The notes beneath the pieces were generated by a model that was given only the letters and a program-made list of their open reading frames with translations, had not been told where the DNA came from and ran no database searches. Of a stretch of DNA of 64,000 bases, positions 2,433 to 28,064 are shown in pieces. The first letter of the stretch is position 1. Every line of letters begins with the position of its first letter. Made by a program: the position numbers and the translations under genes. This stretch comes from Gammaproteobacteria bacterium (lineage in GTDB: Bacteria; Pseudomonadota; Gammaproteobacteria; UBA4575): NCBI GenBank assembly GCA_965222615.1, contig CBDCUI010000007.1:96001-160000 (forward strand). Direction: 5' to 3'.

Positions 2433-3014
2433 ATGAAAAACCGAGTCTTTTTATTCTTTGCTTTCCTATTAGTGATATGCGGCCAAGTAAATACTTATGC
2501 TGCAGGCTTAGAAAATCGTAGCATTAATATTTCTAGTAATGAGAGATTTAATTTTATCAATGGCAGCAGTATTCAGTTCAAATTTAAACCACTATCTGAT
2601 AAGGCTCGAGAACTAGAAATAACAAGGAATGCTTCATCCTTAGGAGTTGCCTACCTGGGACAAATTCAACTAAAAGAAAACATCACAGCTTTGTCAGCTT
2701 TACGATCTATCGCCGATCAAATCGGAGAAAGTTTAAACCTGAGTTTTGGTGTAATCGCAGATTCTAATACTTCTGAAGCACTTAAATTAAATGAATTATT
2801 ATTATTATATCATCCTGCTATCACGGTAACACTTGTATTGGCAAGGCCTAATGAAGAAAGCAATTATGAAATCATATGTACCTATGCATTAAGAGATTTA
2901 AAAGAAGAAAACGCAAGAGACAAACAAACTATATCTCAAGCACAGGGAACAAACCAGGCATCTGAAAATCCAAAACCTCAAGTGAACAAGCAGGAAGAGG
3001 CTGTAAACCAATAG
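2433..3014 (+). CDS. Hypothetical exported protein
   Basis: 193-aa ORF with signal-peptide-like N-terminus; no recognised motif. Confidence 0.55.
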   Translation: MKNRVFLFFAFLLVICGQVNTYAAGLENRSINISSNERFNFINGSSIQFKFKPLSDKARELEITRNASSLGVAYLGQIQLKENITALSALRSIADQIGESLNLSFGVIADSNTSEALKLNELLLLYHPAITVTLVLARPNEESNYEIICTYALRDLKEENARDKQTISQAQGTNQASENPKPQVNKQEEAVNQ

Positions 3015-3126
3015 GTCACTACCACAAGTATTGGACGTAATTTATATAAGTTTTATCAAAAATAATTGATCAGCCATTTATCAACTGTGTAATAGTAAAA
3101 CGCTGTACCCCATTCACCACAATAAG

Positions 3127-3915
3127 GTGCTATTGGTGACCAAAAAACTTCGTAAACGTTTTGGACAACATCTACTCACAGATCCAAATACGATTACCGA
3201 TATCATTCAAGCTATTAACCCTTCTCCACAAGAAAATATTTGTGAAATAGGGCCCGGGCTAGGTGCAATTACGATCCCTGTACTTAAGCAAGTAGGTATA
3301 ATGCACGCGATTGAAATTGACCGAGATCTATCTAAAGAGTTACTAATAAAATGTAAAGAAATTGGTAAACTAGAATTACATCAGTCCGATGTCTTGAAAT
3401 TTAACTTTAATGATATAGCTAAACCAGATCAGCGCTGTCGACTGATAGGCAACCTCCCCTATAACATTTCTACTCCACTTCTATTTCATTTGCTTCAATT
3501 TTCTACTGTTATAGAAGATATGTATTTCATGTTGCAAAAAGAAGTTGTCAATCGTGTTGTTGCTAAACCCGACGATAGTGCATACAGTCGATTAAGTATA
3601 ATGACACAAAGTCACTATCAAGTAGAAAATTTATTTGATATTGCACCAAATATGTTTTCTCCGCCTCCGAAAGTAACCTCTAGTTTTATACGACTACTAC
3701 CAAGTGATATTGTGCTTAAAAAAATTTTAGACCGTGAGTTATTCAGTAAAATCGTTAAATATGCTTTTCAGCATAGGCGTAAAACAATAAAAAATAACCT
3801 AGCATCAATTGCTTCTGAGAAACATCTGGAAAAGGCATCTATAATTCCTAGTCAACGCCCGCAAGAAATTTCTATAGACCAATACATTACACTTACAAAT
3901 CAACTCACGAATTAA
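3127..3915 (+). CDS. rsmA: 16S rRNA m6,2A dimethyltransferase
   Basis: RKRFGQH, EIGPGLG, GNLPYNIS, FSPPPKV motifs; operon context. Confidence 0.97.
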   Translation: MLLVTKKLRKRFGQHLLTDPNTITDIIQAINPSPQENICEIGPGLGAITIPVLKQVGIMHAIEIDRDLSKELLIKCKEIGKLELHQSDVLKFNFNDIAKPDQRCRLIGNLPYNISTPLLFHLLQFSTVIEDMYFMLQKEVVNRVVAKPDDSAYSRLSIMTQSHYQVENLFDIAPNMFSPPPKVTSSFIRLLPSDIVLKKILDRELFSKIVKYAFQHRRKTIKNNLASIASEKHLEKASIIPSQRPQEISIDQYITLTNQLTN

Positions 3916-4060
3916 GTACTTTTTTGACAACTCATTGAATTTTTTACAACTTAAGTTGCTTAAGTATTAACGCTAAGAAACAAAATGGTTAATTTTTACA
4001 CCATAATACAAATGTTAGCTGCATCTGAGTTTTTTATAATTTTGTAGGTATAATACGCAT

Positions 4061-4444
4061 ATGGATGAGTCACAAGCCCACAATATAGATGTAAGCGTAG
4101 ATAGTACCTTTATCGAAGGTCAATCTGACGAAGAACAAAACCGTTTTGTGTTCGCATATACTGTAACCATACATAATACCGGTTTGGTACCTGCTAAACT
4201 GATTACTCGCCACTGGATCATTACAGATTCTAATGGCAAGACCCAAGAGGTAAAAGGTGAAGGTGTAGTCGGTGAACAACCTTATTTACGCCCTGGTGAA
4301 GCCTTTCAATATACTAGTGGCACAATGCTAGAAACACCAGTAGGTACAATGAAAGGCAGCTATCAAATGGTTGCAGATGACGGTACTGAGTTTGATGCTG
4401 AGATTAATGTATTTACATTAGCAGCTCCTCGCGTCCTGCATTAA
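4061..4444 (+). CDS. apaG: ApaG protein
   Basis: FAYTVTI, RHWIITD, GEGVVGEQP motifs. Confidence 0.97.
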   Translation: MDESQAHNIDVSVDSTFIEGQSDEEQNRFVFAYTVTIHNTGLVPAKLITRHWIITDSNGKTQEVKGEGVVGEQPYLRPGEAFQYTSGTMLETPVGTMKGSYQMVADDGTEFDAEINVFTLAAPRVLH

Positions 4445-4554
4445 ATTATTTAATCAACTATCGTATTAGAATTAGCTTTAATTAAAGCTAACATGCGATT
4501 TTGAAAATAATTTTTTGTAAAATGCGCATACTATCTATGTATACAAACTAAAGC

Positions 4555-5391
4555 ATGGCAATTTATGCAGTTGGAGATGTACAAGGCTGTTTTGACGAAT
4601 TACAAGAACTTGTAGAGTACATTTCCTTTAAACCAAAAAAGGATCAGTTGTGGTTCGTAGGTGATATTGTCAATCGCGGACCAAAGTCTTTGGAAACATT
4701 ACGCTGGGTTAAATCTCTTGGCAATGCTGCCGTAATGGTACTGGGCAACCATGACCTACATTTACTCGCAGCTCATGCTGGCGTTAGAGAAACTAGCACG
4801 AGCAGTAGTTTATTCCCAATATTAAAAGCCGATGACGCGAATGAATTAGTTGACTGGCTTAGACATCAACCATTAATACGCTTCAACAAAAAATTTGAAT
4901 TTGCCATAGTACATGCCGGCCTACCACCCCAGTGGAACATACAAGATGCATTTCGTTATGCAAAAGAAGTAGAAACCGTTTTAAAGTCAAAAAAATATAA
5001 AAACTTTCTTTATAACATGTATGGAGATACACCCAATCAATGGAATAGCAAATTAAAAGGCTGGGATCGCATGCGTATAATCACCAATCTCTTCACGCGT
5101 CTACGCTATTGTACTCCCAAAGGAGTGATGAGCTTTGAAGACAAGGGCCCTCCTGGTACACAAAGCGCAGGAATGAAACCTTGGTATGAAATTAAATCAC
5201 GTAACAGTCAAGACACGACTATTGTTTTTGGACACTGGTCTACACTTGGACATATAAATAATCATAACGTGATTGCAACGGATACCGGCTGTCTGTGGGG
5301 AGGACGTTTAACTGCGATCAGAATAGGTAAAGACGAGCTCACAGTTTATCAAGTCAAATGTGAAGCTAAACAAGCTATTCCAACTATTTAA
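4555..5391 (+). CDS. apaH: Symmetrical Ap4A hydrolase
   Basis: GDVQGC, GDIVNRGP, LGNHDLH, FGHWS, DTGCLWGG metallophosphoesterase motifs. Confidence 0.97.
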   Translation: MAIYAVGDVQGCFDELQELVEYISFKPKKDQLWFVGDIVNRGPKSLETLRWVKSLGNAAVMVLGNHDLHLLAAHAGVRETSTSSSLFPILKADDANELVDWLRHQPLIRFNKKFEFAIVHAGLPPQWNIQDAFRYAKEVETVLKSKKYKNFLYNMYGDTPNQWNSKLKGWDRMRIITNLFTRLRYCTPKGVMSFEDKGPPGTQSAGMKPWYEIKSRNSQDTTIVFGHWSTLGHINNHNVIATDTGCLWGGRLTAIRIGKDELTVYQVKCEAKQAIPTI

Positions 5392-16027: not shown

Positions 16028-16870
16028 ATGAACAGGATTTCGTTAATAGTTATTACTCTATTGCTTTGCTTAAGTATGAGCACTGGATTTGCAGAAGAAC
16101 AACCTTTTATCACTCTTTCTTCTACTACTTCTACTGACAACTCAGGCCTGTTGGAGTATTTAATTCCTAAGTTTCGCAATAAAACAAGTATAAATGTGCG
16201 CGTAATTGCTGTCGGTACCGGACGCGCATTGAAACTTGGTGAACGTGGAGATACAGACTTGGTCCTGGTGCATCACAAAGCTTCAGAAGAAAAATTCGTA
16301 GAGAAAGGCTTTGGTATCGACCGCCGCGACGTGATGTATAACGATTTTGTAATCATCGGCCCAAAGAATGACCCGGCTAATATCAAACCTCTTATTAAAG
16401 CGGTTGAGGCTTTTAAAAGAATACATGCCCATCAAGTACCTTTTATTTCACGTGGTGATGACAGCGGTACTCACAAAAAAGAGCTTGAATTGTGGTCGTT
16501 AGCCAAAATAAACATACAACAATATAGCGGCACGTGGTACCGCGAAGCCGGTGCCAGTATGGGAGCTACTCTGAATATCGCCAACGCTATGAATGCTTAC
16601 GTACTTACCGATCGAGGCACTTGGTTATCCTTTAAGAATCGCGATGATCTCAGCTTACTTTTTGAGAATGATCCACCTCTATTTAACCAATACGGTGTCA
16701 TTTTAGTAAACCCTGAACGCCACCCACACATAAAGCACAAAGAAGCTAAACTATTTTCCGATTGGTTAGTTTCTAGTGAAGGCCAACAAGCCATTGCTGA
16801 CTTTACCTTAGAAGGCCAACAACTGTTCTTTCCAAATGCAAATCAAAATATCGCCGTCACACACAAATAA
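16028..16870 (+). CDS. tupA: Tungstate-binding periplasmic protein
   Basis: STTSTDNSGLL, SRGDDSGTH, DRGTW motifs; signal peptide. Confidence 0.9.
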   Translation: MNRISLIVITLLLCLSMSTGFAEEQPFITLSSTTSTDNSGLLEYLIPKFRNKTSINVRVIAVGTGRALKLGERGDTDLVLVHHKASEEKFVEKGFGIDRRDVMYNDFVIIGPKNDPANIKPLIKAVEAFKRIHAHQVPFISRGDDSGTHKKELELWSLAKINIQQYSGTWYREAGASMGATLNIANAMNAYVLTDRGTWLSFKNRDDLSLLFENDPPLFNQYGVILVNPERHPHIKHKEAKLFSDWLVSSEGQQAIADFTLEGQQLFFPNANQNIAVTHK

Positions 16871-16875
16871 CTTTT

Positions 16876-17469
16876 ATGTGGGAACCGAGATTAGAATTCT
16901 CTGAAACCAAGCATCTATGTAAAGTAACCATCAATCAAAACAACCAGCCCATGACCTTCAGCGAAGTTTTAGAGAGTTGGAAGTCCAATGCTGAGTTTAG
17001 AGAATTTTACATTTTGTTACTCAGCGACATGCCTTATGCAGCAGTGTTTTGGGAAATCCCGCCAATCACAAAAGCGACGATCTCAAAGCCTTACGAATTT
17101 GTTGCAGCGGATAGTCCAAGCCTTGTAGGTGTCCCACCCAATTCAACCGCGTTTGAACAATATTTTAAAACTGCAACAAACCATGAAACCGTTGTTAGCT
17201 TTGCAAACTTAGGTAACGATGCTTGGCTAATCGCGCCATGCCCCATAGACTCGCATAACATATACACACACTTAGTTAAGTTCCTACGCGAAGCCCCAAA
17301 CGAACAATGCCATGAATTTTTTTGTAAACTAGGAATGGAAATTGAGAATAAATTAAGCGATGAACCATTATGGATCAGCACCTCCGGCCTAGGCATCTAC
17401 TGGCTCCACGCAAGACTCGATTCCTATCCGAAGTACTATACCTATTCACCTTACAAAACATTTAAATAG
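16876..17469 (+). CDS. Conserved hypothetical protein
   Basis: 197-aa ORF with FANLGNDA and WISTSGLGIYWLHARLDSYPKYY blocks that look conserved. Confidence 0.7.
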   Translation: MWEPRLEFSETKHLCKVTINQNNQPMTFSEVLESWKSNAEFREFYILLLSDMPYAAVFWEIPPITKATISKPYEFVAADSPSLVGVPPNSTAFEQYFKTATNHETVVSFANLGNDAWLIAPCPIDSHNIYTHLVKFLREAPNEQCHEFFCKLGMEIENKLSDEPLWISTSGLGIYWLHARLDSYPKYYTYSPYKTFK

Positions 17470-17481
17470 CTTGTCCCAAAT

Positions 17482-17562
17482 CGCAAGAAGTGGCAGATAT
17501 GCTCCTGCAATTTCTGCATTCCCACCTTCCGTAGTGGTCGAACGTTCAGTTCATTAAATAAC
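17482..17562 (+). repeat. Isolated copy of the outer terminus of the structured element, interrupted by a 48-bp mini-insert (17492-17539)
   Basis: CGCAAGAAGT|insert|GAACGTTCAGTTCATTAAATAAC matches 19108-19139 except for one extra T. Confidence 0.85.
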
Positions 17563-17719
17563 CGCGAAAAGAAGTTTTTTCGCTTTTTTAGAAGCTGTCA
17601 TTGAATTGATCATTAGACATATGTCCAAAATTAAGGATATTGACCCTATGTAGGCTATAAATTTCGAGCATTTGCCCTAACTTCTGTAATAGAAATTTAA
17701 TTTTTATAGGAGAAGGCAA

Positions 17720-18283
17720 ATGAACGAAAACGGATCAAATTTTCCAATTTGGGTCAAATGGACTCATCTTGGGTTAGCTTTTTTTGGCATCATCGCATAC
17801 CTTACAGGCGAATTAGCAGAATACTCAAATAGCTATGGTTATTTGTTACATGCCTATTTAGGCATGACTCTATTACTGTTTCTAATAAGTAGATTCCTAT
17901 ATGGCTTCTTGGGTCAAAACATATACCGATTTTCTAATTGGTTCCCTTATAAGTTGTCATATTTAGTTTCGATTAAGGAGGATTTACAGGAACTCGCAAG
18001 GTTTAAGTTACCAAAGCGGCAAGACCATCGTGGCCTGGCTGGTTTAGTCCAAGCATTTGGATTGGTAATATTCAGCTGGATGGCCATTACTGGAACCATT
18101 ATGTTTGTTACTAATGCAAATGATGATTCCGCCCTGTCTGAGCTACACGAGGTAGGAGAAGGACTTATTCCTTTGTTTTTAGGACTTCATTTGGGAGCAG
18201 TTGCTCTACATGTGATTTCTGGCCACAATCTTTTATCCAAAATATTACCCACGCGTAACAAAAAGAAAGAAAGCACCACTTGA
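17720..18283 (+). CDS. Cytochrome b/b6-domain membrane protein
   Basis: Four hydrophobic helices with His ligands (WTHL, LLHAY, ELHE, GLHL); AGGAG RBS. Confidence 0.85.
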   Translation: MNENGSNFPIWVKWTHLGLAFFGIIAYLTGELAEYSNSYGYLLHAYLGMTLLLFLISRFLYGFLGQNIYRFSNWFPYKLSYLVSIKEDLQELARFKLPKRQDHRGLAGLVQAFGLVIFSWMAITGTIMFVTNANDDSALSELHEVGEGLIPLFLGLHLGAVALHVISGHNLLSKILPTRNKKKESTT

Positions 18284-18753
18284 GTAATTGGCAGTCCTCT
18301 ATAAATTACATACCGGCTGTAGTGCTGGGGATTGCTAGTGCATTTTTCTTATATGACATTATTACTGATGTGATGAAAGGTAATGAGAGCACCACTCATT
18401 TAGTTATTGAAGGTTTTATATTTTTAGCAACCTCAGCTGTTCTCACTCATGAGGTGTTAAGAGTAATACAACTAAAAAAAAATTTAAGACAGGAACAAAA
18501 TAAAGTTGCACGACTCTCAGGTGAATTAAGTAGTGTTATTCAAAAAGATTTTAGAGACTGGAAGCTTACTGAGAGTGAAAAGGAAGTGGCCATCTTGCTA
18601 ATTAAAGGGTTATCGATGAATGAAATTGGGCAATTACGAGGTGTAAAAGAAAAGACCGTGCGTCAGCAAGCAACAAGTATCTATACAAAATCAAAGTGCC
18701 CAAATCGGCACGAATTAGCAGCTAAATTCATTGAGGATTTGCTAAATATATAA
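18280..18753 (+). CDS. Membrane-anchored LuxR-type HTH regulator
   Basis: Two N-terminal TM segments, then LTESEKEVAILLIKGLS..EIG..R.VKEKTVRQQ LuxR HTH. Confidence 0.85.
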   Translation: MSNWQSSINYIPAVVLGIASAFFLYDIITDVMKGNESTTHLVIEGFIFLATSAVLTHEVLRVIQLKKNLRQEQNKVARLSGELSSVIQKDFRDWKLTESEKEVAILLIKGLSMNEIGQLRGVKEKTVRQQATSIYTKSKCPNRHELAAKFIEDLLNI

Positions 18754-18838
18754 ATCTCAATAAGCCCGCTATTGGCCGAATAGCAGACATTAACTATCAG
18801 CTTTGTAAATTACTACCAGTCTCAAACAGAATATATTA

Positions 18839-18940
18839 CTACTGATTCTTTTCTTTTTTCTTCTTAGCAACAAACATCCAAACCGTAATAACAAATCCTA
18901 CGAGTATGAGATAAATAGTCCACTCAATTATTTCAGCCAT
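18839..18940 (-). CDS. 33-aa single-pass membrane peptide MAEIIEWTIYLILVGFVITVWMFVAKKKKEKNQ (not in ORF track)
   Basis: AGGAGG RBS just upstream of ATG, hydrophobic helix plus basic tail, tandem TAG-TAA stops. Confidence 0.6.
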   Translation of the reverse strand: MAEIIEWTIYLILVGFVITVWMFVAKKKKEKNQ

Positions 18941-19108
18941 AACCCCTCCTCTTAGCTAAGGCATTACTTTAACATATTGCAAATTCTTCGATTAATACTA
19001 TTTCTCAATGATCAAATTAAAGAAAATGCTAGATGCTTGTTTTTGCAACGAAAAGGGATCAGGTCCTTTTTCCACTTTATAAAAAATTTGAGTAGTTTAC
19101 TCCAGACC

Positions 19109-19380
19109 GCAAGAAGTGAACGTTCAGTTCATAAATAACATTCATCGGGTTTATTTGTTCATTTTCTTTGCTTGTCCAAAGCCTTAATTAAATGAACTAG
19201 GGGAACCAAAAGAAAAGACACCCTACCAACTTGTCCTTCGGATTCGTTCACGACATCGAGTAACGTTGGCCGGCATAATGACGCCATCCAGGCGCAACAT
19301 GCCTAAAACGACCATCCCTGGTCGTTTTACCTATTGTTCCTTTCGATGTCACTCACCAAGTTGGATGGGAGGATCTAAGA
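19109..19380 (+). repeat. Structured element, left copy (possible ncRNA or ssDNA mobile-element end)
   Basis: Inverted matches to 21262-21519 (18/19, 27/27 and 20/21 nt blocks); nested stems CCAACTTG/CAAGTTGG and GACATCGA/TCGATGTC; two ATCC-loop hairpins. Confidence 0.85.
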
Positions 19381-19554
19381 GCTGCTATATTTAGATTTCT
19401 ATGATCACTAATGACCCAAAAGCATACATAAACTAAATACAGTTTATTGTGAGTAATGAAGAAATATTTCTGAAAGGAAACCGGCTCAACGAGGCTGGAT
19501 AGTTTGATAAAGATTTATCAATGTTTTTAGAAGAACTAAATCTTCTTTTGTAGT

Positions 19555-21069
19555 ATGAACGATAAAGTTACAGAGCCTAAGTCAGTATTGAGTCTTTCGC
19601 ATGAAGAGGCGAAAGACTTTTTCCTAAAGCACGAAAGCTACTTCAATGCTGATTTGCCACCTTACTTCCGTTTTGACCAAATATTAAGCGAAGTCGCAAG
19701 TGAACTTGCCGAAAAACCTTTGAATGGGCTCATGGCAGATACCAAAGCTAAGGATTGCGATGGAGTAAACCATGTAATTATTTCCAATAAAGACGGAATG
19801 CTTTCATGGCGGCCTTTGGAGCTTATTCATCCAGTTCTATATGTAAACCTTGTGCGAGAAATGACGAGAGAGGATAAGTGGCAACAACTTAAAGATAGAT
19901 TTGCGCTGTTAAATGATAATGTTTTTATCAAGTGTCTTAGTATTCCTATTGTTGCCTCAAGTGATACTAAAGATCGTGCTGAGCAAGTTTCGCAATGGTG
20001 GCAGGAAGTAGAGCTTCAGTCTGTTGAATATTCCTTAGATTATGAGTATATGTTTGAGACGGATATTACAGATTGCTATGGCTCTATTTATACGCATTCG
20101 ATTGCGTGGGCAGTTGAAGGTAAAGAAAAGTTTAAGAAAAAAGAAAATCGTAACAACACTAGTTTATTAGGCGTGTTTATTGATAAGTCAATACAAGAAA
20201 TGCAGCATAGCCAGACCAATGGCATTCCTCAGGGCTCTGTTTTGATGGATTTTATTGCGGAGATATTGTTGGGCTATATTGATAATGAACTTTCCCAGAA
20301 GATAAACGAGCATGAGATCAGTAGCTATCGGATACTACGTTATAGAGATGATTATCGAATATTCGTTAATAATCCTGAAATGGGTGAGCGTATTCTAAAA
20401 TTATTATCTGAGGTTCTAACAGAATTAGGTCTGCGTTTAAACCCAAATAAAACAATATTCAGCGATGATGTTGTAAATGCGTCCGTCAAAGATGACAAAA
20501 AATCATGGTTAGCTAGTAAATCCTACCATAAAAACCTATTTAAGCATTGCTTGATTATTAAGAAGCACTCAGATCAATTTCCTAATTCAGGAAGCTTGGC
20601 AACAGCTTTGAGTAAATTCTATAAAAGGATTTTAAAACTTAAAGAACTAGATTTATCAGCTAAAGCAATTATCAGCACAGTGATTGATATTGCCTATAAA
20701 AATCCAAGAACATACCCAGTTAGTTTTGCGATTATAAGTAAATATATTTCACTAATGGATGATAAGGAAAAACTTCCATTAATTATGAAAATAAAAAAGA
20801 AGTTTACTAAGCTTCCTAATGTGGGTTATATGGAAGTTTGGTTTCAACGTTCAATTAAGGAAAAAATTAGTGAAGTTGAATTGAATGAGCCACTTTGCCG
20901 AGTTGTAAAAGGAGAGAAAGTAGTAATCTGGAATTCGGAATGGATTGGATCAAAAACACTTAAGAAAATTGTAGAATCAGTATCTGTAGTGGACAGTAAC
21001 AAATTGGCAGAGGCTGAGCCTGTGATTGATTCACTTGAGTTTGATTTATTTCCACAAGGTTCTGGGTAA
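19555..21069 (+). CDS. Abi-P2-like reverse transcriptase (putative anti-phage DNA polymerase)
   Basis: NKDG..SWR, WWQEVE, TDITDCYGSIYTHS, QTNGIPQGS, YRDD (20341-20352), LNPNKT, helical C-terminus with KNPRTYP and EVWFQR; no maturase/endonuclease domain and no retron VTG motif seen. Confidence 0.8.
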   Translation: MNDKVTEPKSVLSLSHEEAKDFFLKHESYFNADLPPYFRFDQILSEVASELAEKPLNGLMADTKAKDCDGVNHVIISNKDGMLSWRPLELIHPVLYVNLVREMTREDKWQQLKDRFALLNDNVFIKCLSIPIVASSDTKDRAEQVSQWWQEVELQSVEYSLDYEYMFETDITDCYGSIYTHSIAWAVEGKEKFKKKENRNNTSLLGVFIDKSIQEMQHSQTNGIPQGSVLMDFIAEILLGYIDNELSQKINEHEISSYRILRYRDDYRIFVNNPEMGERILKLLSEVLTELGLRLNPNKTIFSDDVVNASVKDDKKSWLASKSYHKNLFKHCLIIKKHSDQFPNSGSLATALSKFYKRILKLKELDLSAKAIISTVIDIAYKNPRTYPVSFAIISKYISLMDDKEKLPLIMKIKKKFTKLPNVGYMEVWFQRSIKEKISEVELNEPLCRVVKGEKVVIWNSEWIGSKTLKKIVESVSVVDSNKLAEAEPVIDSLEFDLFPQGSG

Positions 21070-21261
21070 ATTTCAATATTGTAACGGATAAGTTATTTCG
21101 TGATTACGGAAGACCTGCTCGAACTAGCTCACGATTAATTCATAAGCTCTAGTTGAATGACTGCACTCCTCCTTATTCCATATTTTAAGTTGAAGTGTTG
21201 CTTCCACCAATTGGGGTCGCCGCCGTAAGCAGACATCCTGTACGTGCAAGTTCAGAGTCTT

Positions 21262-21519
21262 TCTTAGACTTCCCATTATTTACTTGACGAGCAAGCAGAT
21301 AAGACTGCTGACAAATGAATATGGATATTCATTTGAGGCACGCAACGCATGGATGCGTTTCGGGCCGACAGCAAAGTCGTTCTGTGCAGCGAGTGAACCC
21401 TGTAAGGGCAAGTAAATTTGGGTGTCCTTTCTTTTGGTTCGTTTTCTTTGGACAAGCAAAGAAAATGAACAACCTAATTTGATGACTTTAAATTAATGCT
21501 CTGAACGTTCCCTTCTTGC
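21262..21519 (-). repeat. Structured element, right copy, inverted relative to 19109-19380
   Basis: Same terminal blocks in reverse complement; stems ATTTACTTG/CAAGTAAAT, CAAATGAATAT-GG-ATATTCATTTG, AACGCAT-GG-ATGCGTT. Confidence 0.85.
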
Positions 21520-21568
21520 CGAAGTAAAAAATGATTCGTTTACTGGATTGCTTCGCTATGCTCGCAAT

Positions 21569-22649
21569 TGTATAGGTTACGTAAATCGTTGATGAAAATC
21601 ACTCATCCGATAATCTTAGATAAGTGTCTAAGCAACTCGGAACAGGAGGAGAAGCCATCATGCGAATCAACAGTCGAGATAGCACGTTAAAGAAGAACTA
21701 CATTCAGAAATATCAATATCTAATAGCTGAATACGAACAAGTTAAAGCCAAGCAGCACCCGCAGTATCGCCGGGTCAAAGACTTCTATGCGGCCCACGGT
21801 ACTTGTCCTCAAACGTTTTTAAAATACTACGCACGCTATCGTCAAAGTGGTAATGTGGTTTCTTTATTACCCGCCAAACGTGGGCCGAAATGGCGTACTC
21901 GACGCACTTGTCCGCAGATCGAAGCGCAAGTCCTCAAAGCGCGTGCGCAAGGCAATAATCGCTATGAGATTCATCTTATCTTACAAGCGAAATTAGGTCA
22001 GAATACGCCCTCGCCATCATGTATCTATCAGATCTTCAAACGTCATGGAGTGAACCGATTAAGGCCTGCTATGCAAGAAGAAAAACGCCGCATTATTCGA
22101 GAAAAGGCAGGCGAGCTCGCCCATATAGACTGTCATCACTTGAGTAAGGATATGATTGCCAATGAATCCAAGCGTCGCTATTTAGTGTGTGTGGTGGATG
22201 CCTACAGTCGTATTGCCTGGGCGCAAGTGGTCGAGGATATTCAAAGTCTAACGGTGATGTTTGCTACGCTGCGTTGTTTCAACTATTTATCGAGTCAATA
22301 TGGGATTCAGTTTGCAGAAGTCCTGACAGATAATGGACCGGAGTTCGGAGTCAAAGAGTCGAAACAAAAACCCAAACATGCCTTTGAGCGCATGTTACTA
22401 GAGATGGGCATCAAACATCGCTATACAAGACCTTATCGTCCACAAACCAATGGCAAAGTGGAACGCTTTTGGAGAACCTTGAACGAAGATTTGATTGATG
22501 GTACTTACTTTACCTCAGAAAAACACTTTGCAGATGAACTGAGTGCCTACTTAATTTATTACAATGAAGCGAGAGCCCATCAAGGTATTGATGGCAAAAC
22601 TCCCGCTTCCATGCTACAAAATCTATCAACGAATTAGATAACACATACA
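21569..22649 (+). mobile_element. IS481-family insertion sequence, 1081 bp
   Basis: TGT...ACA ends, imperfect TIRs (TGTATAGGTTACGTAAATCGTTGAT vs reverse-complement TGTATGTGTTATCTAATTCGTTGAT), GCAAT duplicated at 21564-21568 and 22650-22654. Confidence 0.92.
21660..22637 (+). CDS. IS481-family DDE transposase (ATG 21660; GTG 21624 alternative)
   Basis: HID, VDAYSR, TDNGPEF, PQTNGKVERF, YNEARAH integrase core; GGAG RBS before ATG. Confidence 0.92.
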   Translation: MRINSRDSTLKKNYIQKYQYLIAEYEQVKAKQHPQYRRVKDFYAAHGTCPQTFLKYYARYRQSGNVVSLLPAKRGPKWRTRRTCPQIEAQVLKARAQGNNRYEIHLILQAKLGQNTPSPSCIYQIFKRHGVNRLRPAMQEEKRRIIREKAGELAHIDCHHLSKDMIANESKRRYLVCVVDAYSRIAWAQVVEDIQSLTVMFATLRCFNYLSSQYGIQFAEVLTDNGPEFGVKESKQKPKHAFERMLLEMGIKHRYTRPYRPQTNGKVERFWRTLNEDLIDGTYFTSEKHFADELSAYLIYYNEARAHQGIDGKTPASMLQNLSTN

Positions 22650-22707
22650 GCAATGACAAGTACGGTGGGTTACCAAGTATTGTATATAACGACAAGATAA
22701 ACGAAGT

Positions 22708-23949
22708 TTATCTTGCAAAAGCCGGTCTATCCTTATTCAACCCCATCGCATGCGTCATAAAAAACTTTTTAACCGGTTGAATTTTATCTGCTGCATTTAA
22801 TGCAACATTACGTGCAGTGACAACTGGTTTTGCGGTAGATCCAAATGCTGCCACAAATGCATCCATGGCTTTTTGCATAATTTGTGTCTCCCCTACCCGG
22901 GCACGTTCATATTTGCGCAACACTTTATAACTACCGATATCACGCTCCCTATTAATAGATGAGCGTGCCAATACATCTGCCAGCACTGCGGCATCGGTAA
23001 ACCCAAGATTGGCCCCTTGGCCGGCTAGTGGGTGTATGGCATGTGCAGCATCACCTACTAATGCGATACGTGGTTGCACCATGCAATCGGCATGACCCGA
23101 CACCAACGGAAAACCTGCACACTTGGAACGTAAAGTAATTTCACCCAGTTTGGATTCACTGGCTTGGGCTAAGGCATCTGCAAATTTATGCTCATTCAAC
23201 TTCATGAGTTCATCGGCATAATCATCACTTACCGACCACACAATGGAACACTCCCCATTGTTTAACGGTAATAACGCCAATGGACCGGTATTTAAAAATC
23301 GTTGCCATGCAGTATCTTCATGTGCACGTTCGGTTTGTACACGTGCGACTAGACCTAGCTGTTGATAACTTTTTTCGGTGTAGGAAATATCTGCAAGACT
23401 ACGAACCGTGGAACGATGCCCGTCTGCTCCTACGAGTAATTTAGCAATTATGACTTGATCGTTATCAAGTATGACTTCTACATTGTCCGCATGCGTTATC
23501 ACTTTGTTGATGGTTTTATTTAAGTACCATTTAATATTGGGTTGTTGTTGCAAAACCTCATGTAAACTAGACTGAATCACGATGTTCTCAACGATGTACC
23601 CAAGATTGGCTTGGTTTACGTCGATGGCATTGAAACTAATGTTTGCATTACCGGCTTCATCCCAAACATGCATATTTGTATAAGGCGTAATACGCTTTGA
23701 CGCCATAGCAGACCATGCATCGATATATTCAAAAATGGCTTTAGATCCAGGACTTACTGCAGTGACCCTTGCTTCCCACTCTTGTTGTGAATCAAATGTA
23801 TGTGGTTCTGCGCGATCGATAATAGCAAGTGTTTTGCCTTGTTTAGCTAACAGGTTCGCAAGCGTAAGACCTACCATGCCGGCTCCTACGATAACTACAT
23901 CAACAGTTAGGTGCTCAGAAGCCAAAAGAAGCACCTCTATATAAACCAA
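22708..23949 (-). CDS. ubiI: UbiI/VisC FAD-dependent ubiquinone hydroxylase
   Basis: GAGMVG, GADG, GDAAHAIHPLAGQGANLG; follows ubiH. Confidence 0.82.
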   Translation of the reverse strand: MVYIEVLLLASEHLTVDVVIVGAGMVGLTLANLLAKQGKTLAIIDRAEPHTFDSQQEWEARVTAVSPGSKAIFEYIDAWSAMASKRITPYTNMHVWDEAGNANISFNAIDVNQANLGYIVENIVIQSSLHEVLQQQPNIKWYLNKTINKVITHADNVEVILDNDQVIIAKLLVGADGHRSTVRSLADISYTEKSYQQLGLVARVQTERAHEDTAWQRFLNTGPLALLPLNNGECSIVWSVSDDYADELMKLNEHKFADALAQASESKLGEITLRSKCAGFPLVSGHADCMVQPRIALVGDAAHAIHPLAGQGANLGFTDAAVLADVLARSSINRERDIGSYKVLRKYERARVGETQIMQKAMDAFVAAFGSTAKPVVTARNVALNAADKIQPVKKFFMTHAMGLNKDRPAFAR

Positions 23950-23964
23950 TATATAAACATGTAC

Positions 23965-25179
23965 TCATGAATTGACTGCCTGGCCCCGCAACAAGCTTGC
24001 GCTTGAACCCAAAGTACCTAAATTTTGTTTAACGACACGTTCTTCCAATATCGGGATTGCACCAAGTAATGCCAAACCTAAACCGCGGGAACGCGACAAC
24101 AAGGGATAATCTGCATTGAAAATAAAATTAAGCCGGTCGGTGAACCGAACGGTCTTTTCAATATCCGGTTGGCGCTTGGTTTCATAGGCTTGTAATTTTT
24201 TCTCGATCGATTCAACGTCATTTTCATTTTTTATTAAAATTTCGCTCAGTTCTGCAATATCGCGCAAAGCCAAATTTAATCCCTGTCCGGCCACAGGATG
24301 TAAGGTTTGCGCGGCATTGCCAACTAATACAGCGCGACCCTGTACACGTTGCTCACTCACGGTGAGTGTAAGGGGATAGGCAAATCGTTTGGTTACATTT
24401 GAAAAATGTCCAAGGCGAAAACCAAATGCTTGCTGCAATTTATCCAAGAAAACCTGATCAGAGAGGTTTAAATATTTTTCGGCAGTAGCGTCTGGATTCA
24501 TCCAGATAAACCCGCAACGATTTCCTCTGCGAGGTAAAAGTGCTAATGGCCCATTTTCTGTAAAACGTTCATAAGCCGTATATTGATGATGATTTTCTGT
24601 GTCAACGCAACCAACAATGGCAGTTTGTTGATAAGATTTTTCCTTGAAAGGGATATTTAACTTATCGCGTATAAAAGAACGCGCCCCGTCTGCAGCAACT
24701 AATAATTTCGCAGTGATTGACTCGCCGTCACCATGAAATATGACTTGATCGCCCTGCGCTTTAACATCAGATACCTTATACGGCTGTAGGCGTTGAATAT
24801 TCTTTTGTTGTTGTAAGTGTTGTTGTAAGGCATTGCTTAGTTGTTCTGCAGGTACCAGATAACCAAAACACTCTACCTCATAGCGCGCGCTGTTCAGACG
24901 CGTAGCACCAAAGCGACCTTGATCAGAGATATGAATCTTTTTAATGGGAACAGCTTCTGCATCGAGTTGCTGCCACAAACCTAAGACGGAATACATTTTT
25001 TTCGAGGCTAAGGCTAAAGCAATGCTTCTACCGTCTTGATTAGTTGTTGCATGATTAATTTGCGGGAGTGGTTGGCTATCAACCAATGCAATTCGATACT
25101 TTGTTGCAGACAATGCACAGGCTAAGCTGCTGCCTACTAGACCGGCACCTACAATCGCAATATCAAACTGACCTTGCAT
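23965..25179 (-). CDS. ubiH: 2-octaprenyl-6-methoxyphenol hydroxylase
   Basis: IHISDQGRFG, AYERFT, GNAAQTLHPVAGQGLNL; follows pepP. Confidence 0.92.
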   Translation of the reverse strand: MQGQFDIAIVGAGLVGSSLACALSATKYRIALVDSQPLPQINHATTNQDGRSIALALASKKMYSVLGLWQQLDAEAVPIKKIHISDQGRFGATRLNSARYEVECFGYLVPAEQLSNALQQHLQQQKNIQRLQPYKVSDVKAQGDQVIFHGDGESITAKLLVAADGARSFIRDKLNIPFKEKSYQQTAIVGCVDTENHHQYTAYERFTENGPLALLPRRGNRCGFIWMNPDATAEKYLNLSDQVFLDKLQQAFGFRLGHFSNVTKRFAYPLTLTVSEQRVQGRAVLVGNAAQTLHPVAGQGLNLALRDIAELSEILIKNENDVESIEKKLQAYETKRQPDIEKTVRFTDRLNFIFNADYPLLSRSRGLGLALLGAIPILEERVVKQNLGTLGSSASLLRGQAVNS

Positions 25180-27872: not shown

Positions 27873-28064
27873 CGGACACCTCTATGATACAGGTGAGCTA
27901 CCCGGTATATCCCTTGAGCCTATTTTTTTATACCGGGGGCAATACTATAGAAGTGTTGATGCGCATGTCCGAAAAATCGGAAAGCCTAATGCACTTCTTG
28001 GTGCTCCCACTTGAACCTTTGGTTCAAGGACAACGGTTGCCACGGTAATTATGGAGTGTGTCCG
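27873..28064 (+). ncRNA. ssrS: 6S RNA
   Basis: Directly downstream of zapA; ends pair (CGGACAC/GTGTCCG); CCCTTGAGCC and CTTGAACC..GGTTCAAGG blocks typical of 6S; TACAGT -10 at 27858. Confidence 0.88.

Follow-up and report, generated by a model that had tools for sequence, protein, structure and literature searches.

An Abi-P2 reverse transcriptase is enclosed by a divergent TwoAYGGAY doublet

We analyzed positions 19109-21519 of a 64,000-nucleotide stretch of DNA (hereafter the window) from Gammaproteobacteria bacterium (GenBank assembly GCA_965222615.1, contig CBDCUI010000007.1, positions 96,001-160,000), in which a single reverse transcriptase (RT) gene is enclosed by two structured elements in inverted orientation. 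The flanking elements belong to a dispersed, multi-copy family of known repeats, TwoAYGGAY, which the initial annotation had not recognized, and the RT is of the Abi-P2 class. Overall, the locus is probably best explained by a self-sufficient Abi-P2 RT that occupies, as cargo, the spacer between two divergent TwoAYGGAY elements.

The RT gene (19555-21069, plus strand) encodes a protein of 504 amino acids with an RYRDDYRIF motif, as initially annotated, and its proposed Abi-P2 kinship was borne out by RT-class profiles over the full length. The PADLOC AbiP2 profile (PDLC03744) matched residues 7-501 over profile positions 3-485 of 489 (E 5.6e-194), with Drt6 as the runner-up class (E 1.3e-52), and Pfam RVT_1 was also matched (E 4.6e-15). 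Residues 6-495 aligned with residues 30-529 of the solved Abi-P2 (PDB 7R08; E 1.3e-88), in which the RYRDDYRIF block is identical; judged from this alignment, the palm motif and a predicted C-terminal helical domain are like those of the solved protein. The only other open reading frames (ORFs) of at least 50 amino acids between the elements were short, overlapping ones on the minus strand (20844-21002 and 21124-21276). No transposase or integrase was found inside the RT interval, in agreement with the initial annotation, and the rve-type ORF at 21624-22637 is outside it. Abi-P2 was detected in 2 of 401 sampled genomes of the class, the source genome counted, and the closest RT homologues found were from Marinospirillum (66%), an Alcaligenaceae metagenome-assembled genome (66%) and Alloprevotella (47%). 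The GC content of the RT gene (35.6%, compared to 39.2% for the genome) fits horizontal acquisition. Purified Abi-P2 is reported to synthesize DNA without a template, and protein-primed, template-independent synthesis and phage defence are described for it (PMC9508834). By what is established for Abi-P2, the RT of the window would be an ordinary self-sufficient defence polymerase that requires no RNA partner.

Structure, strand and family of the flanking elements

The left element, of subtype A, spans 19109-19370 on the minus strand and comprises a core (19219-19370), a conserved 3' module (~19155-19218) and an outer module (19109-19154). The right element, of subtype B, spans 21271-21519 on the plus strand, with a core (21271-21424), a 3' module (21425-21472) and an outer module (21473-21519). 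Both hairpin loops of the right core read AUGGAU, and those of the left copy AGGGAU and CUGGAU. All three inverted blocks initially described between 19109-19380 and 21262-21519, bounds which reached ~10 nt further inward than those adopted here, were recovered by a repeat finder: 28 nt at 86% (19109-19136 and 21492-21519), 50 nt at 80% containing the 27/27 block (19132-19181 and 21446-21495), and 21 nt at 95% (19203-19223 and 21420-21440). A full-length alignment of the two copies has 321 columns, with 77% identity.

When 17000-24000 was scanned with Rfam at E <=1, the sole match was to the TwoAYGGAY RNA motif (RF01731; Weinberg 2010, PMC2864571), in the left copy on the minus strand (36.2 bits, E 0.0053), under the gathering cut-off of 43 bits. 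Among 10 other element loci, 7 matched TwoAYGGAY at 29.4-44.0 bits, one of them passing the cut-off at 44.0, and most copies in the source genome score under it. Since both RT-flanking copies are below the cut-off, it is the copies taken together that assign them to TwoAYGGAY. A covariance model (R1, core of 152-167 nt) was built from 10 copies of the family; it scored the left copy at 153.6 bits and the right copy at 156.1 bits (the two matches having E values of 5.8e-42 and 2.9e-41), matches that arise by construction because both copies were included in the build. BLAST with the left copy gave 19 matches in the source genome, and the R1 scan 16 core matches, only 2 of them adjoining the RT; 14 of the 16 reached E <=4.1e-21, and the 10 copies used in the build are matched by construction. 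Element copies were found in 8 of 56 family genomes, the source included (16 in the source, then 4, 3 and, in the remainder, 1 each).

The predicted fold is well supported by the 10-copy alignment. In it, 95.8% of 380 cells were paired, against 34-47% with the partners slid, and in 18 of 38 pairs both partners vary, a level reached by 0 of 500 shuffles. This covariation supports two AYGGAY-type hairpins modelled on a common basal stem, as in TwoAYGGAY. We counted 39 G-U cells against 5 A-C cells on the favoured strand, a count biased by the structure having been predicted on that strand and partly controlled by the comparison of fold energies: the consensus fold was -39.8 kcal/mol on the TwoAYGGAY strand compared to -23.0 on the opposite strand, and single-sequence folds were lower on the TwoAYGGAY strand for 10 of 10 copies. 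These tests place the folded strand on minus for the left copy and on plus for the right copy, so that the 5' ends are toward the RT and the 3' ends outward, both elements being directed away from the RT as a divergent doublet. The left copy and the RT gene are arranged divergently; the right copy shares the RT sense strand and lies 200 nt beyond the stop codon.

As modelled, the element would consist of a long basal stem that carries two hairpins with GGA loops, a very conserved 3' module made of a U-rich tract and a hairpin, and a lineage-specific outer module of ~45 nt. An exact 24-mer of the 3' module was found in more than 124 metagenome stretches (loci L040-L163), where diverse GGA-hairpin cores stand before it and the sequence after it is unrelated. 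The hairpin of the 3' module has 14 bp, the metagenome copies show covariation at its closing pair, and the U-rich tract just upstream could lie along its A-rich arm as a triple helix. Ten metagenome loci with the 3' module gave no TwoAYGGAY match with Rfam, and among the 76 of these stretches that were searched, R1 matched only in L049. In a plasmid collection, there were only 3 partial matches to the 3' module, none of them annotated.

Two further repeats were observed beside this family. A miniature derivative (C8:449253-449335) has the type-A basal stem halves joined as a perfect palindrome, the GGA hairpins being absent. A second conserved repeat (C8:422827-423008; L004 1255-1436), with no Rfam match, is situated upstream of one element, next to an exact inverted copy of a 20-mer from the leader of the RT-left element; it is 91% identical to a copy in genome G001, ~850 bp from the only element of that genome, and several copies occur in G002.

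Divergent pairs enclose other DNA elsewhere

Core matches within 2.5 kb of each other form only two pairs in the source genome, both divergent (P = 4.5e-4 under uniform random placement, a null that ignores any preference for intergenic sites). The family is multi-copy and enriched as divergent pairs in this genome. Besides the RT pair, two divergent pairs, A and B, surround other DNA. Pair A (C7:773978-776107) consists of a full element and an inverted 47-nt outer-end fragment, and encloses three small ORFs, one with a DUF4145 domain. Its flanks are 11-146 bp apart in 9 relatives (G001, G002, G003, G006, G007, G009, G010, G012 and G014), and the segment missing there (query 2951-5121) coincides to within 28 bp with the unit bounded by the outer modules (2979-5107). 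Pair B (C7:788598-790949) encloses an IS110-family insertion sequence (IS) and a 101-aa ORF, and its flanks are 48-185 bp apart in 10 relatives. As the IS110 is present in 6 copies with its own target, the native spacer of pair B is ~400 bp. By their absence from the matching sites of relatives, the doublets behave as discrete inserted units able to hold genes. Single elements, which are more numerous than pairs, also look like insertions in short intergenic gaps.

The IS110-family element itself (C7:788837-790267 and five other copies) is 1,431 bp long, with four copies at 98.5-100% and two at 79%, and all six are inserted after a short ATGTCY-like sequence. We rejected it as the origin of pair B, given that this target is shared by the 6 copies and is not tied to TwoAYGGAY elements.

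Wide doublets were surveyed in G175, an unrelated genome of the class, and in a few metagenome loci with two matches. In G175, 30 Rfam matches form 12 pairs, all 12 divergent; 11 of the gaps are 78-273 bp, and the remaining one is 1,151 bp and holds a 180-aa ORF of no known family, between arms that are 98% alike over 95 nt. In the metagenome locus L095, a minus/plus pair 3.9 kb apart surrounds four ORFs.

The RT locus holds other genes in a second lineage

The genes that border the locus, a binding-protein gene (16028-16870) and a monooxygenase gene (22708-23949), are 52-93 bp apart in 7 relatives (G003, G004, G010, G012, G016, G017 and G024), which makes 16871-22707 a composite island. A DUF6940 gene (16876-17469; E 7.2e-64) adjoins the binding-protein gene in the window and in G001, and is absent where the flanking genes abut. 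The contigs of three DNA runs gave identical pieces at the RT stretch, broken at the repeats, and no empty or joined form was seen in them; parts lacking cover in X2 and X3 carry no weight. Empty sites in related genomes, which the initial annotation had proposed to look for, were found for pairs A and B, in 9-10 relatives.

The metagenome contig L049 has the gene order of the window (PCuAC, permease, ABC ATPase, binding protein, island, monooxygenase), with a binding protein 79% identical and flanks 71% identical at the DNA level. At the position of the RT locus, it carries a divergent doublet (R1 matches at 1401-1540, minus, and 3782-3931, plus) whose content is a VIT1 gene, a 123-aa ORF and two small ORFs, with no RT. 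The left element of the window and its 51-nt 5' leader (19371-19421, minus strand) are conserved in the same-locus copy of L049: identity over window positions 19213-19421 is 82.5% across 211 nt, and 47 of 51 leader positions agree by our own count. This homology stops at 19421/19422, 51 nt past the inner end of the left element. At this breakpoint starts AAGCATACAT (19420-19429), directly repeated as AAGCAGACAT at 21228-21237 (9/10), a repeat that may be due to chance (rough chance estimate ~0.03). A recent joint transfer of island and flanks was considered and rejected, since flank identity to L049 rises no higher than 77-79% beside the island.

Weighing of the alternative explanations

The initial annotation had offered two readings of the locus, the first being that the left copy is a co-transcribed non-coding RNA (ncRNA) partner of the RT. 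This reading was not supported, as the left copy folds antisense to the RT and is directed away from it. The search of the genome and of RT-homologue flanks with a covariance model, proposed at the outset, found dispersed copies, 14 of 16 being away from the RT, and none at homologue loci: the four other Abi-P2 loci (L033, L034, which is cut on one side, L035 and L037) had no R1 match, no TwoAYGGAY Rfam match, no 3'-module match at <=3 mismatches and no long flanking inverted repeats. The result at these four loci leaves the ncRNA partner without support, and repeats that are common and multi-copy are not a private RNA partner of the RT. A system of RT plus ncRNA (retron or DRT2-like), for which the ncRNA would be next to the RT, on its strand and conserved with RT homologues, found no support in the strand or at the same four loci. 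We also regard as highly improbable the broader idea that the RT has a functional RNA partner or regulator in one or both elements, for example the right copy as a CsrA-binding 3' untranslated region, or the two arms pairing across the transcript. The sense-strand position of the right copy, the lack of any terminator-like site found between it and the RT stop, its two AUGGAU loops and the one csrA gene of the genome agree with such a role; the dispersed copies, the four loci, the antisense fold of the left copy and the template-free DNA synthesis reported for purified Abi-P2 (PMC9508834) speak against it. Even less probable is a coincidence in which a resident RT gene came to be flanked by two separate insertions of the element. 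Single copies too resemble insertions in short gaps between genes, in line with this, but random placement accounts poorly for two divergent pairs within 2.5 kb, pairs are likewise divergent elsewhere (all of those in G175, and 68.4% of 3,166 doublets reported for TwoAYGGAY of Pseudomonas; bioRxiv 10.64898/2026.09.22.753630), and L049 has the pair at the RT locus without the RT.

The second reading of the initial annotation, that the elements are the ends of a unit holding a defence gene, held in part: pairs A and B occur elsewhere and are absent in relatives, and L049 has other cargo. Its movement part was not sustained, with no second copy, no target duplication and no transposase found. We therefore consider it rather unlikely that 19109-21519 is a non-autonomous composite mobile unit whose long terminal inverted repeats are the elements or their ~45-nt outer modules and whose RT cargo is moved by an enzyme from another locus. 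The inverted outer ends are alike (18/19), the segment missing at pair A fits a unit bounded by the outer modules and pair B is alike, solo outer modules occur at five places, and the wide G175 doublet has nearly identical arms, all of which would suit such a unit. Against this, each of the gene-holding units occurs once, the outer ends revealed no target duplication, and no transposase with matching ends was found, the rve-type IS (described below) and the IS110 having their own ends and targets. A TnpB-type guide RNA was rejected as well, no Cas12f1-like_TNB domain being found in the genome. Single elements are more frequent than pairs, and the same-site doublet with other cargo in L049 is, unless insertion is site-specific, better explained by turnover within a resident pair.

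The cargo explanation, which we prefer, would make the doublet a lasting feature of the RT locus with contents that turn over. The AT-rich RT gene would have been acquired horizontally, joining or replacing older spacer content, and would work alone, the repeats being a general feature of the genome. Within this explanation, we give about equal weight to doublets that move as units and to doublets that stay while their content is exchanged. Several observations weigh against it. Both RT-flanking copies fall under the Rfam cut-off, the right one with no match, and the placement null and the G-U count carry the biases given above. The RT-locus doublet is absent from G001, which is of the same genus, from G019 and from four other element-carrying genomes, so that a long-resident doublet needs losses, or else one site was hit by insertion more than once. 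The left element is 82.5% identical between the two lineages, compared to 64-79% for the coding flanks, and could, from these identities, reflect later transfer rather than residence. Finally, the short GMTBT(T) 5' repeat arrays of Pseudomonas are not enriched here (1.29 vs 1.03 per 200 nt).

The function of TwoAYGGAY, a widespread motif, is unsolved. As a tentative and somewhat doubtful generalization, divergent doublets may be gene-holding insertion units or cassette-exchange sites, the conserved arms serving as recognition or homology ends and accessory genes, such as the Abi-P2 RT, being swapped between lineages. If this were true, an orphan RNA family would gain a role in gene mobility. 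One locus has different cargo in two lineages, and if this were general, TwoAYGGAY would be linked to gene mobility and the spread of defence genes, and the doublets would give a concrete place to seek the enzyme or recombination route.

Neighbouring insertions and solo outer modules

Outside the right element by ~50 bp, an IS with an rve-type transposase (rve and rve_3 domains; 21570-22650, plus strand) is inserted in repetitive extragenic palindromic (REP)-like sequence. It has 5 copies of 100% (rounded) identity, in the window and at C7:8441, C8:160247, C9:879217 and C9:1004283, and the flanks of all five read as insertion in one 12-bp REP-like site, in either orientation. This site is just outside a TwoAYGGAY outer end in 2 of the 5 copies. 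The IS beside the right element is a secondary insertion, outside the RT unit.

Solo outer modules (~45 nt) were found at 17481-17565, C7:776061-776107, C8:448179-448227, C9:1004189-1004238 and C7:813165-813192. The first (plus strand) is split by a 46-nt GGA-rich insert and is a direct repeat of the outer end of the left element; together they bracket cytochrome b561 and LuxR-type genes, which are situated elsewhere in G001 and G023. The outer-module motif occurs 4 times in the window, compared to 0.14 expected. Separately, a 6S RNA gene (27876-28061; 71.7 bits) is the sole Rfam match above its cut-off in the window.

Comparison with known systems

Miniature inverted-repeat transposable elements (MITEs), composite transposons and REPIN-type repeat doublets are known mobile or repeat classes, and our comparison with them was made by description rather than against a library. 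The unit shares with them inverted ends, no inner enzyme gene, short intergenic gaps and empty sites in relatives. In contrast, target-site duplication, a second gene-holding unit and a matching transposase were not found in the source genome, and the arms here are whole folded elements of 250 nt, not short repeats. Retrons, DRT2 and DRT9 are systems of RT plus ncRNA. The window resembles them in having an RT that adjoins structured non-coding DNA, but here the left copy folds on the strand opposite to the RT and the right copy follows the RT gene, RT homologues do not share the element, and the enzyme belongs to a template-independent class.

The closest counterpart of the flanking elements is the extended, doublet-forming TwoAYGGAY described in Pseudomonadota, with extra hairpins and a 3' pseudoknot (bioRxiv 10.64898/2026.09.22.753630). 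That preprint groups matches whose midpoints are within 2 kb, reports copy numbers that differ widely among genomes and REP arrays downstream, proposes a role as Csr/Rsm sponge, and presents the elements as apparently mobile, leaving the mechanism open. The copies studied here agree with its description in the pair of GGA-loop hairpins that top a long basal stem, their dispersal in numbers that vary between relatives, their divergent pairs, the extra structure 3' of the Rfam core and the REP-like sequence just downstream in 2 copies. They differ in that the pairs are ~1.8-1.9 kb apart and hold genes, compared to the median gap of 249 bp given in the preprint, whose main text lacks the word "cargo".

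With the Abi-P2 and AbiK abortive-infection polymerases (PMC9508834; PDB 7R08), the RT shares a full-length match, the same catalytic block and its occurrence as a single gene. The protein itself is not different and only its position between repeats is unusual; as a private RNA partner is not supported, nothing changes for Abi-P2 biology. Overall, this is a known RT within a known repeat family, and the gene-holding doublet is the modestly new part.

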